In this document: positions 2,896-33,539 of the stretch, one piece after another | How the letters are laid out: every line of letters starts with the position of its first letter | How positions within the stretch are numbered: position 1 is the first letter of the stretch | Source: Anaerotruncus sp. | Lineage (GTDB): Bacteria > Bacillota > Clostridia > Oscillospirales > Ruminococcaceae | Assembly (NCBI GenBank): GCA_021770005.1 | Contig: JAETRV010000006.1 | Location: forward strand, 4,372-68,371 | Direction: 5' to 3' | Length of the DNA: 64,000 bases | Translations under genes and position numbers: made by a program | Notes under the pieces: generated by a model | What the model was told of the DNA's origin: nothing | Seen by the model: only the letters and a program-made list of their open reading frames with translations | Database searches by the model: none

Positions 2896-3825
2896 ATGAC
2901 CCAACAGGACATCGAAATCTTTTTTGCGGTGGTGGAGAAGCGCAACCTTTCCAAGGCGGCCAGTGCGCTTTATATGTCGCAGTCCACCCTCAGCCACCGG
3001 CTGGGGATGCTGGAAAAGGAGCTGAATGCGACCCTGTTCATCCGCCACAAGGGACACCGCACCCTCGAGCTGACCCCCTACGGCCGGGATTTTGTACGGA
3101 TCGCCGAGCGCTGGATGGCGCTCTGGGCGGAAGCGCAGGACCTGCACACGATGCATGGGAGCCACACCTTTTATATCGGGTCGGTGGCCAGCCTGATCCA
3201 GTACCTGTTCCCCCACCTCCTACAGGAGATTTTCCGGAAGGAACAGCACCAGATTCGCCTGATGGTCAAATCGATGCAGTCGGCCGCGCTCTACCCCGCG
3301 CTGGAAAATCGGGAGATCGACCTCGGATTTTCGGTGCTGCCGTCGTTTTACAGCAATGTCATCAACCAGCCGCTGCTCAGCGAAGAAAACGTGCTGATGG
3401 TGCAGAACGCTTCCCCGCTGCCGCCGGGGGAGTACGGGCCGGACGTCCACCCCAGCGAGCTGGACCCCGCTAAGGAAATCCTGTTCCAGTATCACCAAGA
3501 CTACCGGCACTGGCGCAACTACTGGTTCGGGTACTATACCGACCCGGCGATCGGGCTGGGGGACGCGCTGTTGGTGAAGGATTTTTTCTCGACCCCCAAC
3601 GACTGCTGGTGTGTGGCGCCGGTCTCGATGGCGCTGGAAATCCAGCGTTCGTGCAACATTTCAATTCACCGGTTCACCAACCCGCCGCCGCCCCGCACCT
3701 GCTATATGCTGACCCACCGGATTCCACGTACCGGCTACGAATCGAGCATGGAGCTGTTCATGGACTACCTGAACCGGTTTCTTCGGGACGAGGCGGCAGC
3801 GGGACACCTTCAGATTCTCATCTGA
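2896..3825 (+). CDS. LysR-family transcriptional regulator
   Basis: ORF 2851..3825 trimmed to ATG 2896, with AGGAG 10 nt upstream. N-terminal HTH: MTQQDIEIFFAVVEKRNLSKAASALYMSQSTLSHRLGMLEKEL. Confidence 0.85.
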   Translation: MTQQDIEIFFAVVEKRNLSKAASALYMSQSTLSHRLGMLEKELNATLFIRHKGHRTLELTPYGRDFVRIAERWMALWAEAQDLHTMHGSHTFYIGSVASLIQYLFPHLLQEIFRKEQHQIRLMVKSMQSAALYPALENREIDLGFSVLPSFYSNVINQPLLSEENVLMVQNASPLPPGEYGPDVHPSELDPAKEILFQYHQDYRHWRNYWFGYYTDPAIGLGDALLVKDFFSTPNDCWCVAPVSMALEIQRSCNISIHRFTNPPPPRTCYMLTHRIPRTGYESSMELFMDYLNRFLRDEAAAGHLQILI

Positions 3826-22602: not shown

Positions 22603-22679
<77 letters not shown>

Positions 22680-22871: not shown

Positions 22872-24160
22872 CTACTGTGGAGTGTCCCTACTCGGTTCCT
22901 CTGTCCCCGGAAGGAAACCGCTCATCCGGTCGATGGCCTTCCGCTTTTCATCGTCCAGCACATGAGAGTACCGCTCGGTAGTGACGATGGAGGAGTGGCC
23001 CATAAGGTTCTGGATGATGCGAATGGGGACATTCTGCTCCATCAGTCGGGTGGCGAAGGTATGCCTGAGTGCGTGGACATTGACCCCTTGCAGCTCGCAC
23101 CGTTTGCAGACCGCCTGTACCCGTTTCTGGTAGGTTCGGGGGTCGGTGTAGATCCCCCGCTTGGAGGGGAAGATGAGGTTTTGGGGATTGGGCTGTCCCT
23201 CGTGAAGCTGAACCTGCCGGTGGAGCATGAGCAGCCGCTAGATGTTTTCATAGACCGGCGTTTCCCGGTTGCTGGTTTTGCTCTTAGGGGTCTCCTGGAG
23301 GATCAGCTCGGTCTTTTTGCCGGATGGGTCGTCAAAGAGCTGCACCCGTTCCAGATCCTTGCAGATACGGATGGTCCGCTTCTTCTCGTTGAGGTCGCCC
23401 CACTCCAACGGTAATATTTCCCCATCCTCGCCCCCGTAAAGAGGGAAAGGAGCATTGCCACCCGCAGGCGCTCGGAGAAGATTTCCTTGATGAAAATTTC
23501 CATCTCCTCCACCGTCAGCACCCGGCGTTCGGTGGGCTGAACCTCCGGGAGCCGAAGCTCGGCGGCGGGGTTTTCAATGATGATCTTCCCCCTGGCTTTC
23601 TCCAAGGCGGCATTCAGCACCACGAAGATGTTGTAGATGCTCTTGGGAGAAAGCCCGCCTTTCCTGTCCAGTCGCCCATTGGTTTGCAGAAAGTTGAGAT
23701 AGGTCTGCATATCAGCATCGGTCACTTTGTTCAGCGGCGTCTGGCCGAAGAAGGGCAATATCTGTGTCTGGTAAGTCTGCATATAGGAAGAATAAGTGGT
23801 GCGCTTCACCGAAGGCGGGGTCTTGTAGGTCTGGATAAAGTACAGCACCCAGTCGGAAAGGGAGATGTCTATGTCGATCCCCGCCGGGGGTTTCAATCCG
23901 AGGGGCGCACCTGCCAGCATCCGGTAGGCTTCCTGCTGGCGCTGTCCCCGAATTTCCTTCACCCGTTTCAAGAACTCCTTGTACTTTTTGGCAAGCTGCT
24001 CCTCGGTCTTGCCGGTGAAGGTCACCCGCCGGTATTTGTCGTTCTCATCGGTCTCATATTTCTGGAAAATGAGGTATCCATCCTTGCGGAGATAGAGGGT
24101 GCCGCCCTCGAAAATCTTGGCGTGTTTGGACGAAGGCGTGTAGCTTTTACTTTCTGCCAT
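22872..24160 (-). pseudogene. int: tyrosine recombinase/integrase, disrupted
   Basis: The N-terminal part is ORF 23303..24160 and the C-terminal part is ORF 22872..23228 (HALRHTFATRL...LMGHSSIVTTERYSHV). The frame is lost in the G4 run (plus-strand C4 at 23420-23423), where ...GARMG should continue EILPLEWGDLNEKKRTIRI... There is also an in-frame TAG at 23240-23238. Confidence 0.8.
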
Positions 24161-29579: not shown

Positions 29580-31425
29580 GATAACTGGCTTTTTTGAGGG
29601 GGGCGGGGGCCGACTGGCCGGGGGTCACAACAGAGAGGGGCGCATTGGGCACCACCCTGGCCAGCAAGATCTGGTCCGGCAGCTTGGGCAGTCCGGTGAT
29701 GCTCTCCACATCGTCTATAAAGACGGGGTAGCGCCGCCCGGTGAGCCGCTTCATCAGCTGGGAGACCTCCAGGCCCGCCCGCAGCTTCTCCGAATGGGAA
29801 AGCCGCCGGTAATCCCTGCCGTTAAACTGAAAGCGGAAGGCGCTTTTCAGCTCCCCGGTGGTCTTCACCAGGTCGTAGAGAGAAATTTTCACCTGGGGCA
29901 TGGAGAGGCTGGCAAAGGAAAGCTCGTTTCGCACCGCCAGATAATTGACCGCGGCGCTCATCAGCAGCTTTTTTTGCCGGATCAATTCGTCCACTTCCTT
30001 TTCGCGGGCGTCCAAATCGGGGCCCGGCCGTGCGGCGACCTTCTCCAGAGCGGCCAGTTCTTCCTCCGCCTCCTGTTTCCTGGCGTGGAGCTCGGAAAGC
30101 CGCCGCATCTCCTCATCGTCCAGGTTTCCATAGGTCAGGCTGGCGTTATGCCCTTGGATTTGGCTGTCCAGAGCAGAAAGGGCTTCTCCGTGTTCCCGAA
30201 GCTCCTGTTCCATCTTTGCCCGCTGCCCGTGCAATCGGGCCAGCAGGGCGGCGTTTTTCTCCACATCTTCCTTGTGGAATTGTTCAAAGGTTTCCTGCGC
30301 TTGCTTTTCCAGTGCGGTCAGGTCGTTCAGCTGGGAACGCAGTCCCTGGCCTCGTGAGGTGACTTCCCCCAGCTTTTTGCGAAGATTTTCCTGAGCCTGG
30401 GCTACCGCATCAGCCGGGAGCGGCTGTTTACAGGTGGGGCAGATCGCGCCTGGCTGGGTACGGGAGAGCAGGACGCTTACCTGCTTATGCTCCGCCGCCG
30501 CAGCCTGGAGCGCCGCCTGAGTCTCGGCCAAAGCAGCGGTGAATTTGCCCTCGTAGCTTTTCACCCGCAGCCGTTCCTGGGCCAGCTCCGCCTGGCGCAG
30601 CTGTTCCAGCAGTTCCGGAGGAACCTCCTCCGGCTTGTCCCGAAGCAGCTCCTCGTACCGCTGGTGCAGCCCTTCCAGCTGTTTTTCCAAGGCGGGGCGG
30701 TCGATACCGGCCTCCCTTTTCTGTTCAAGAATGCTGATCTGGGCTTCAAGCTGGGCCAGCTGTTCCTTGCCCTGGGAGATAGCTTCCCTGTTTTCCTTCT
30801 GCTGCCGGAGCAGCTGGACCTTCTGGCCCTCCAGCACCAACTTTCCTTCCTCCAGGTCCCGAATTTCTTCCCGCATGGTTTTCAGAAAGGTCTCCGGCGA
30901 CAGGAGAGAGACATTCTCTAAAAGGGTCTGTTCCGGCTCGGCGAGCCGTTCCAACACCGCCTTGTGGTCGATGAGGGGAAGGTTTTTCTGAAGGAGAGTC
31001 TGTCCATCGTTCCCCAGCGTTTCAATGAAATAGAGGGGATTGAAGATGGAGAGAAATTCGTCCCGTTCCCCGAACATTCTGGCAAGGTCGGCCTGCCGGA
31101 TGGCGTAGCCGTCCCAGGTGACCTGCATCTTGTCCCGTTTCCGGGTGCGGACCAGCTCGTGGGAAACTCCCTTGTCGTCCTTGATCCAGAGGTGAATTTC
31201 AATGTCCGGCAAAGTCTCACAGTAGAGCTTGTCGATATGGGCCCCGCCGAAGCGGTCCTGGCCGGTGACAGCAAAGGCGATGGCATCCGCCACCGAGGTC
31301 TTTCCGGCGTGATTGGCTCCGGTGACAAAGCTCACCGGGCCGAAGTCGAAGGTCTGCTCCTCCCGGAAGCACTTGAAGCCGGAGACGGATAAACTGGTGA
31401 TTTGAAACCCGCTGATTTTTTCCAT
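29539..31425 (-). CDS. Rad50/SbcC-like SMC-family ATPase with coiled coil and CxxC hook
   Basis: ORF 29539..31434; ATG 31425 has AAGGAG 8 nt upstream. Walker A GANHAGKTS, a long heptad-rich middle containing GAICPTCKQPL, and a C-terminal VFIDDVESI (Walker B/D-loop). Confidence 0.7.
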   Translation of the reverse strand: MEKISGFQITSLSVSGFKCFREEQTFDFGPVSFVTGANHAGKTSVADAIAFAVTGQDRFGGAHIDKLYCETLPDIEIHLWIKDDKGVSHELVRTRKRDKMQVTWDGYAIRQADLARMFGERDEFLSIFNPLYFIETLGNDGQTLLQKNLPLIDHKAVLERLAEPEQTLLENVSLLSPETFLKTMREEIRDLEEGKLVLEGQKVQLLRQQKENREAISQGKEQLAQLEAQISILEQKREAGIDRPALEKQLEGLHQRYEELLRDKPEEVPPELLEQLRQAELAQERLRVKSYEGKFTAALAETQAALQAAAAEHKQVSVLLSRTQPGAICPTCKQPLPADAVAQAQENLRKKLGEVTSRGQGLRSQLNDLTALEKQAQETFEQFHKEDVEKNAALLARLHGQRAKMEQELREHGEALSALDSQIQGHNASLTYGNLDDEEMRRLSELHARKQEAEEELAALEKVAARPGPDLDAREKEVDELIRQKKLLMSAAVNYLAVRNELSFASLSMPQVKISLYDLVKTTGELKSAFRFQFNGRDYRRLSHSEKLRAGLEVSQLMKRLTGRRYPVFIDDVESITGLPKLPDQILLARVVPNAPLSVVTPGQSAPAPLKKASYPKIQSKSDLPKTA

Positions 31426-31455
31426 GCTTTTCACTCCTTTGGAAATATCAGGTCC

Positions 31456-32252
31456 TTACGCGGCGATCTCATAGCTTTCCAGCAGATTGACCACCTCGTT
31501 GTTTCTGCCCCGCTGCTGATTCAGCCGCACATTCCGCAGGCAGATGCCCTGGGCCAACTGCCGGTCGTCTCCGGGCCGCAGGCAGACGATCTGCCGCCCC
31601 TGCCGGTCGCAGAGGCTGAGGGCGGTGAGTTTTCCGTCCGGGGAGAGCTTCCTGTCTTGAACGGTGTAATCGAAGGTGAAGGAGCCGGACTTGGCCGGTT
31701 GGAAGGCGGAAGGTGCTGCCGCCGGTCTGGGCGCAGCTGTTCCTTGGGGCGCCGCCTTTTGCGGTGCTGGGGCTTTCCCCTGGAGCATCTGGGTGTACCT
31801 GGCGTCCAGGGACTTGCGTCCTGTCTCGGTGATGTAACAGTTTTTCCCTTCTGTTCCACATCCACCCAGACAGCGCCCAGGGAGTAGAGGTACCGGCCAA
31901 TGCCCCACTGGACAGCGGCCCGCTTGAAGGAATCGGAAAGCCCGCCCTTCACCGGCTCGATGTCGCTGTTCTCGGCCCCGTCGGTCTTGGTGACCCACTC
32001 CTTGCGCTCCTCATCGTAGATGGAGAGGGCACAGAGCTGGGAGCCGTTGCCGATCTGGTGCCAGGGGGCAAAGGTGGTTTTCCAGTGGAAGGGCCCCACC
32101 GTTTCGTCCAGCCGCTTCTGGATGGCCCGGCTGGTGATGAAGGCCACCGCCAGCCCCCGGCTTTTGTCCTGGGTGGTCTGTTGGATGCGCCACTCCACAT
32201 CCTGCGCCTCAAAGGGGGCGGTCAATTTCTGGATCAGTTCCTGCTCATTCAT
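31456..32252 (-). CDS. Rad52/Rad22-type single-strand annealing protein; the reading frame needs a -1 shift at 31848-31842
   Basis: The N-terminal part is ORF 31521..32252 (FEAQDVEWRIQQT...GLSDSFKRAAVQWGIGRYLY). After ...VDVEQKGK the zero frame becomes Arg/Pro/Ser-rich, while the -1 frame (ORF 31456..31998) reads NCYITETGRKSLDARYTQMLQ...NLLESYEIAA. Confidence 0.65.
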
Positions 32253-32265
32253 GGGGAAACTCCTT

Positions 32266-32928
32266 TCATTTCAGAAAATCCTTCAAAGTCCGCCCGCTGG
32301 GGATGAGGACTTTTTCGTAGTAGTGATCCGGTTCCTTATCCTTCATATATTCCAGAAGATCCCGGTGCCCCAGCTTCAGCTGGTTGTTGCGTGAGGTAAA
32401 ATGGTCGTCGTTGTTGGGCATCTCCAGAATCAAGTAGGGCAGAGAGGACAGGGTGTGCAGGCTCTTGCACTCCGGCAAGACATTCCCGCCGGTACACAGG
32501 TGAAAGCCGCTGACATTGGAAAAAGGGTAGTGGAACATGGGGGTGTCCGGCGTCAGCCGGCCCTCAGCCACTACGCCCATCTGGCAGTTTTGCACCCGCA
32601 GCCCCATATGCAGGCCAAAGCGGAAAACCAGCCTTGGTAGGGGAAAATGGGGATACACGGTATTCCCATAGGTGATGTCTGCGTATCGGGCCGGGTGTTC
32701 GATGGAAACGGAACGATAGCCGTTATTTCCGGCGTCAAAGGAGATGCAGCCTGTGGGCAACAGTCCGCTTTGGACCATTTCCCGCTGCAAACTCCCCTTG
32801 ATGCACTCCACCAGGGCGTTATACCCGATGCGCTTGGTGATGATGCTCCCCTCTGAGGAGCGGCTCTCCACCTTGATGGTGGCGGAGCCTGGGTCGATGT
32901 GTAAAATCAGTTCTTGTTCGGGGTTCAT
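32266..32928 (-). CDS. E2-like (UBC-fold-like) protein, putative
   Basis: 220 aa. FHYPFSNVSGFHLCTGGN resembles the HPN...Cys active-site strip of ubiquitin-conjugating enzymes and prokaryotic E2 families. Same operon as E1 and JAB. Confidence 0.45.
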   Translation of the reverse strand: MNPEQELILHIDPGSATIKVESRSSEGSIITKRIGYNALVECIKGSLQREMVQSGLLPTGCISFDAGNNGYRSVSIEHPARYADITYGNTVYPHFPLPRLVFRFGLHMGLRVQNCQMGVVAEGRLTPDTPMFHYPFSNVSGFHLCTGGNVLPECKSLHTLSSLPYLILEMPNNDDHFTSRNNQLKLGHRDLLEYMKDKEPDHYYEKVLIPSGRTLKDFLK

Positions 32929-33539
32929 CAGGCGGCCTCCTTCCAGTTTTCCGGTCTCGGCAACGGCAGGTAGAGGACCTTCGCCTTCCGCTCCCGGTCA
33001 TACTTCCAGATCTCATACCGCAGCTCCTCCACCATATGCTTGTAATAATCGAAGATATGGGCGAGGGCTTTTAACAGAGAAAACTCCTGGTTGAACTCCG
33101 GGGAGAGGTAAAGGGTGATCCCGCTGGCCCACCGGTGGTTGACTTTCGTGCTGTAACGGTAGGTGTAATAATAGGAATATAGGCTGTCCAGCTGTTCCTC
33201 CAGCTCCGTCTTTGCCTGTTCCATATAAGGATTTCGCCGCAGGGGGACTCCTCTTTGTCTGGACCAATCCCGGCACAGGCGGTAAAAATCCATCATGCTC
33301 CGGTGGCTGAAAAACCAGCAGGTATCCATATAGGGTCCAACCTCTCGGCATTTCCAGAAGTCACAGACAGTGGTCACTCCCTCGATGATGTAGGAGTAAT
33401 AATCCTCCGCCACGATTGGCAATGCGCCGATCCCTTCCAGGTAATCCTCTTCCCTTCCGGCGTCGCTGAGGACCTTGCCGACCAGGATGGGGATGGGGAT
33501 AAGGCTCAGCTCAAAATTCTCATACTCGTAATCGTCCAT
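32928..33539 (-). CDS. hypothetical protein (aromatic-rich, 203 aa)
   Basis: GAAGGGGG RBS. Its stop overlaps the start of the E2-like gene (TGATG). Ends ...NWKEAA. Confidence 0.55.
   Translation of the reverse strand: MDDYEYENFELSLIPIPILVGKVLSDAGREEDYLEGIGALPIVAEDYYSYIIEGVTTVCDFWKCREVGPYMDTCWFFSHRSMMDFYRLCRDWSRQRGVPLRRNPYMEQAKTELEEQLDSLYSYYYTYRYSTKVNHRWASGITLYLSPEFNQEFSLLKALAHIFDYYKHMVEELRYEIWKYDRERKAKVLYLPLPRPENWKEAA

Follow-up and report, generated by a model that had tools for sequence, protein, structure and literature searches.

A Rad52-like annealase gene in the window, by which we mean the whole 64,000-nt stretch of DNA that was analysed, changes its reading frame exactly at a slippery-type heptamer, G_GGA_AAA. 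Does this layout represent a programmed -1 frameshift that yields two isoforms of the annealase, or has the gene simply lost one base from a short run? From the comparison with orthologous proteins and DNA loci, with contigs of sequencing runs and with a structural model, we consider it highly probable that the gene has undergone a one-off single-base loss and that the site is not one of programmed recoding, the two statements being taken together.

The annealase gene and its two frames

By its profile matches and its setting, the gene is predicted to encode a Rad52-family single-strand annealing protein of an integrated mobile element. The 243-aa ORF that starts at 32252 and occupies 31521..32252 of the minus strand matches Pfam PF04098 over residues 4-134 (E 9e-15; score 55.3 bits, above the curated cut-off of 20.3; positions 3-146 of the 153 in the profile) and phrog_1097, labelled 'Erf-like ssDNA annealing protein' in PHROG, over residues 7-137 (E 5e-46). 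Neighbouring genes encode an SbcC/Rad50-like ATPase, a CHC2-zinc-finger primase-like protein, DUF6744 and a DUF6094 methyltransferase, and the element further contains a weak Prok-E2_D match and a 734-aa ORF with Prok-JAB and ThiF domains. A family-wide genome search recovered a homologue in 5 of 401 genomes and in none of the four genomes of the same genus, a distribution that is patchy and mobile-element-like.

At the site, the minus strand reads CAG AAG GGA AAA ACT GTT, within which the upstream ORF has the codons AAG (31850-31848, K135), GGA (31847-31845, G136), AAA (31844-31842, K137) and ACT (31841-31839, T138). The heptamer G_GGA_AAA lies at 31848-31842 in the X_XXY_YYZ phase of this ORF, with exactly the letters and coordinates that the first-pass annotation had given, and the A5 run spans 31845-31841. 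The -1 frame is open from 31842 (NCYITETGRK...ESYEIAA) and contains no internal stop before its stop codon at 31456-31458. That annotation had taken the -1 frame for a real domain, and rightly so, with 60-88% identity between this frame and the C-terminal halves of 24 database proteins. It had also described the unshifted frame as Arg/Pro/Ser-rich, which holds for residues 138-243, a segment without a genuine homologue. Table 1 collects the features.

Table 1. Features of the annealase gene and of the integrase region (window coordinates)
Feature	Position	Strand	Basis or content
Rad52-like annealase gene, in two frames	31456..32252	minus	matched by orthologue P0007 in two adjoining pieces (residues 1-139 and 135-259), each in its own frame
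5' part, frame 0, M1-K137	31842..32252	minus	Rad52_Rad22 core up to the beta-hairpin turn
Tract AAGGGAAAAA, one base short relative to all relatives	31841..31850	minus	1-nt insertion in every blastn subject
3' part, -1 frame, 128 aa	31456..31842	minus	ungapped alignment to orthologues
0-frame tail, residues 138-243	31521..31841	minus	out-of-frame read of GC-rich coding DNA
Tyrosine integrase, in three pieces	22872..24160	minus	frameshift and in-frame stop at 23238-23240
tRNA-Met gene beside the broken integrase	22603..22679	plus	probable integration site of the element

The 3' part carries the last strand and helix of the annealase core, a Pro/Ala-rich linker, a C-terminal beta domain and the stop. 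When the two parts are read through, the full annealase has 265 aa, and the orthologues have 259-275 aa. The conserved beta domain comprises ~75 aa (window 31459-31683, minus strand; residues 212-287 of a distant homologue, P0032) and closes with (Y/F)EIAA in every case, down to 38% identity. In a scan of 1.8 billion representatives, it was almost confined to these annealase proteins. Searches of Pfam, PHROG and NCBIfam gave no match to the domain, and a profile search against solved structures returned nothing significant (best E 0.25). Separately, a 203-aa ORF at 32928..33539 likewise terminates in Ala-Ala (...KEAA). Conceivably, such an Ala-Ala terminus might act as a handle for E1/E2 enzymes of the element.

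The 5' part shows 98-99% identity to P0007. The 3' part is nearer P0001 (88%) than P0007 (84%), so that the gene at 31456-32252 (minus strand) is a mosaic, and the length of the Pro/Ala-rich linker differs among relatives. Together, the mosaic identities and the linker variation suggest recombination between element variants.

Reading frame in relatives and the missing base

The frame layout of orthologues had been set beforehand as the check, and the outcome was uniform. A search with the -1 piece among longer proteins showed that each of the 24 proteins with the C-terminal part has PF04098 as well, in one frame; 22 of them are 259-275 aa long, and the two shorter variants have 232 and 240 aa. 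Their junction sequence is ...VDVEQKGKNCYITE..., with ...VDVEQ(K/R)GKNCYITE... uninterrupted, and the window's two pieces align to these homologues end to end without a gap. The close orthologous DNA loci are likewise single-frame (8/8), reading CAG A(A/G)A GGG AAA AAC or CTG CGA GGT AAA AAC; L001-L003 come from genomes annotated as MAGs of uncultured Clostridia, Angelakisella and Oscillospiraceae, and the other five (L037-L040 and L045) are metagenome contigs. Even the distant P0032, of 287 aa and 38% identical over the C-terminal domain, shows this architecture in a single frame, with no slippery sequence at the equivalent position. In a blastn comparison of window 27-37 kb with six orthologous loci, the sole uncompensated 1-nt coding indel within the annealase and downstream ATPase genes was that at 31848-31850, the subjects carrying their additional nucleotide at window ~31848-31850. 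Programmed -1 recoding with two isoforms, as first proposed for this site, is thus contradicted by orthologues that are continuous in one frame, an outcome which the proposal itself had named as counting against it. A scan of viral contigs yielded distant Rad52-like genes only (<=47% identity), all lacking the C-terminal domain, and these matches are uninformative on the junction.

Some of the orthologous annealase genes are themselves damaged. In the mouse-gut Oscillospiraceae MAG (L003:3001-3804), the annealase has an in-frame stop near 3720, in the C-terminal domain (...LAQGI, stop, LRNV...). At L045:1982-2065, ~1.3 kb is missing (window ~31772-30459), with about 80 nt in its place, so that a single open frame of 350+ aa runs from the annealase core into the distal half of the SbcC-like ATPase gene. 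L037 has a 42-nt in-frame deletion within the Rad52 core, equivalent to window ~32156-32115, and P0028 (143 aa) is a further internal-deletion variant.

We also asked what is on record for the 0-frame product. The exact 243-aa protein forms a singleton cluster and is on record from NCBI and Logan only. A search with residues 138-243 matched the protein itself and P0026 only. P0026 (193 aa, from a 1.1-kb ENA contig) is a chimeric call without an in-phase Rad52 core, in which the first ~46 residues of the DUF6094 methyltransferase and the last residues of the E2-like protein are joined to an alternative-frame read of the annealase. It was rejected as a second protein sharing the 0-frame tail because it is an alternative-frame read of an intact orthologue, and its make-up implies a deletion variant or a misassembly of the module in another sample. 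The 0-frame tail is, as far as these matches indicate, no conserved product.

The identity of the missing base can be read from the Logan contigs (not reads) of four sequencing runs, X1, X2, X5 and X8, which were compared over 31300-32400. X1 held 86% of the sampled words at a k-mer depth of ~5; its contigs are identical to the window over 31599-31925 (0 differences) and leave a coverage hole at 32040-32113. Among the four runs the match to the window is confined to X1, which is possibly the sample from which the genome was assembled. Three other studies of the rodent gut supplied the metagenomes X2, X5 and X8, each of which has one additional base at 31840-31848: on the plus strand, a T behind 31840 (X2), a T behind 31848 (X5) and a C behind 31843 (X8). 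The corresponding minus strands read AAG GGA AAA AAC in X2, which at ~97% likeness is the nearest contig and represents an A6 allele, AAA GGG AAA AAC in X5 and AAG GGA AGA AAC in X8.

These contigs bear out the simpler possibility raised at the outset, a loss of one A that leaves A5 for A6: all orthologues have one base more than the window, and X2 carries A6. The lost base was probably one of an A6 run. Loss from an A3 run, leaving A2, gives the same letters and also fits; A6 to A5 is favoured because the nearest allele is A6 and because its run is the longer one. A loss within AAAGGG with the A5 run unchanged was considered as well, and that view was softened given the A6 allele in X2, both losses fitting the letters.

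Inactivating mutation or sequencing error

How could such a loss have come about, and what would it do? Replication slippage would have dropped one base from AAG GGA AAA AAC, most likely turning A6 into A5, in this genome only. Normal translation would then leave the annealase frame after K137, add 106 meaningless residues and stop at 31521, giving a product that lacks the last core strand and helix, the linker and the C-terminal domain. Truncation of this kind most likely inactivates the gene, and the in-phase G_GGA_AAA would be a by-product of the deletion context and not an evolved recoding signal. What the comparison shows is the break itself, its confinement to this genome, the single frame of every relative and the further lesion in the element; a real mutation, as opposed to a consensus error, and a non-functional truncated product are what we infer.

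The state of the surrounding element is consistent with this. The integrase retains SAM-like domains in 23303..24160 and PF00589 profile positions 81-170 in 22872..23228, and its frame changes near 23408, between the SAM-like and catalytic parts. The tRNA-Met gene is the probable integration site of the element. With both annealase and integrase broken, the tRNA-Met-linked element is probably immobilised and decaying. The annealase lesion is unique to this genome and is accompanied by a second lesion in the same element, the pattern expected of a frameshift pseudogene in a decaying mobile element. The lesions in the orthologous genes of L003, L037 and L045 point the same way.

Taking these observations together, the explanation that we think probable, with some reserve, is that a real mutation has inactivated a gene of a decaying mobile element. 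This explanation is favoured because X1, assembled independently, has the same sequence here, because the source assembly has a completeness of 96.5%, because no other coding indel lies nearby and because the element also carries a nonsense substitution. Against it, the only run that reproduces the letters is X1, at a depth of ~5, and X1 may be the source sample itself.

This leads to the strongest of the alternatives, in which the organism's own DNA retains an intact A6 (or A3) run and one base of the homopolymer was dropped in error from the consensus of a low-coverage draft or MAG. The source assembly is indeed a draft in 155 contigs, the X1 contigs are shallow at the locus and interrupted at 32040-32113, and the break sits in a homopolymer tract. 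The annealase gene also shows no other signs of decay; so pristine a state is consistent with a very recent mutation and with an error alike. However, Logan's assembly of X1 was made independently and has no difference from the window over 31599-31925, NCBI and Logan both list the 243-aa product, and the completeness of the assembly speaks against one that is generally indel-ridden. Furthermore, the break is the only uncompensated coding indel in the roughly 3 kb that surround it, and the in-frame stop of the integrase is a substitution, not a homopolymer slip, which points to true decay of the element. An artefact is therefore a possibility that we take seriously but regard as unlikely, and a real mutation remains our preferred reading.

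Slippage at the heptamer and comparison with known systems

Given a real deletion, the letters that remain could still matter: a -1 slip on G_GGA_AAA allows perfect re-pairing, and some full-length protein could be made in this way. The heptamer alone is not beyond chance. In a crude ORF set of the window (about 56 kb), 86 in-phase X_XXY_YYZ heptamers occur, GGGAAAA 6 times and GGGAAAG 8 times among them, and a plain indel can be expected to break the frame at just such a place, because indels and slippage both favour homopolymer runs. The small hairpins noted downstream in the first-pass annotation are present, but the RNA folds no better than shuffled sequence: the 101 nt from the site have a minimum free energy of -31.5 kcal/mol against -26.3 +/- 3.3 for the shuffles (z -1.57), with 11 of 200 shuffles folding at least as well. 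In bacteria, A_AAA slips less readily in the A site than A_AAG does and, without a stimulator, makes a weak slip site; unstimulated slippage on such heptamers is typically of the order of 1% or less.

The position of the break relative to the protein fold is also informative. The phrog_1097 alignment covers residues 7-173 of the intact P0007 and so crosses the break, and it ends at 137 in the window ORF. The AlphaFold model of P0007 has a mean pLDDT of 52, with the C-terminal domain below 50, and only its segment 126-157 was used; this includes the best-predicted stretch (pLDDT about 78-80), consisting of strands 126-135 and 138-141 followed by helix 143-157. The shift site corresponds to the turn between the two strands in this model. 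The break accordingly falls within the conserved annealase core, not at a domain border, and it would be odd for two isoforms to have evolved with their point of divergence in a hairpin.

One way in which slippage could matter is an accidental, leaky rescue: the deletion is real, and -1 slippage on the leftover heptamer keeps enough full-length annealase for function. The product of a -1 slip would have exactly the orthologous junction KGKNCY, and the -1 part has accumulated no stops. A recent mutation equally explains this lack of decay, however, and decay is evident elsewhere in the element; the 101-nt fold revealed no stimulatory element, and the unstimulated level of slippage is low. We regard such a rescue as very unlikely, and the same holds for a freshly born, not yet conserved recoding site at which full-length annealase is kept beside a truncated, core-only form, a development to which we give little credence. 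Least probable of all is an evolved programmed -1 frameshift at G_GGA_AAA that makes a short 0-frame isoform and a full-length annealase, for although the in-phase heptamer permits perfect re-pairing, the open -1 frame holds the conserved remainder and small hairpins lie downstream, the two-frame layout is absent from the 24 proteins, the eight DNA orthologues and the contigs of three other studies, the 0-frame tail is not conserved, the break interrupts a folded, conserved core, the RNA downstream has no significant fold and A_AAA is the weaker A-site sequence. Two other routes to the downstream part were set aside, both as unlikely: transcriptional slippage, for which A5 is short, and internal restart, there being no start codon with a ribosome-binding site near the junction.

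We conclude that a frameshifted Rad52-family annealase gene, be it a pseudogene or possibly a sequencing error, is the appropriate annotation here, and that a recoding site is not. The case also calls for a general caution. Single-base indels arise in homopolymer tracts that resemble slippery heptamers, and a frame change at X_XXY_YYZ without a conserved two-frame layout is thus weak evidence for recoding, because indels share those tracts.

How does the gene compare with known systems? Its N-terminal 137 residues match PF04098 and phrog_1097, as do Rad52/Rad22 annealing proteins of phages and mobile elements, and like theirs the gene lies within a recombination/replication module, beside an SbcC/Rad50-like ATPase. 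It differs from them in the narrowly distributed C-terminal beta domain of ~75 aa with its invariant EIAA, which is a property of the subfamily. A literature search on Rad52 returned eukaryotic RAD52 papers only.

The lesion itself is of an ordinary type. Homopolymer frameshift pseudogenes in degenerating prophages and integrative elements share with it a single-base loss in a short A/G run, confined to one genome with the relatives intact, and the presence of other lesions in the same element, here the split integrase. The sole peculiarity of the present case is that the leftover letters form an in-phase slippery-type heptamer.

With the recoding sites of phage lambda G/GT (G_GGA_AAG) and of dnaX tau/gamma (A_AAA_AAG), the gene shares an X_XXY_YYZ heptamer and downstream information in the -1 frame. 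In lambda G/GT and dnaX, relatives retain the two-frame layout and both products have a function, and dnaX adds SD-like and hairpin stimulators. In contrast, the layout in the window occurs in one genome only, its 0-frame tail is junk, no significant structure follows the heptamer and the break cuts the annealase core.
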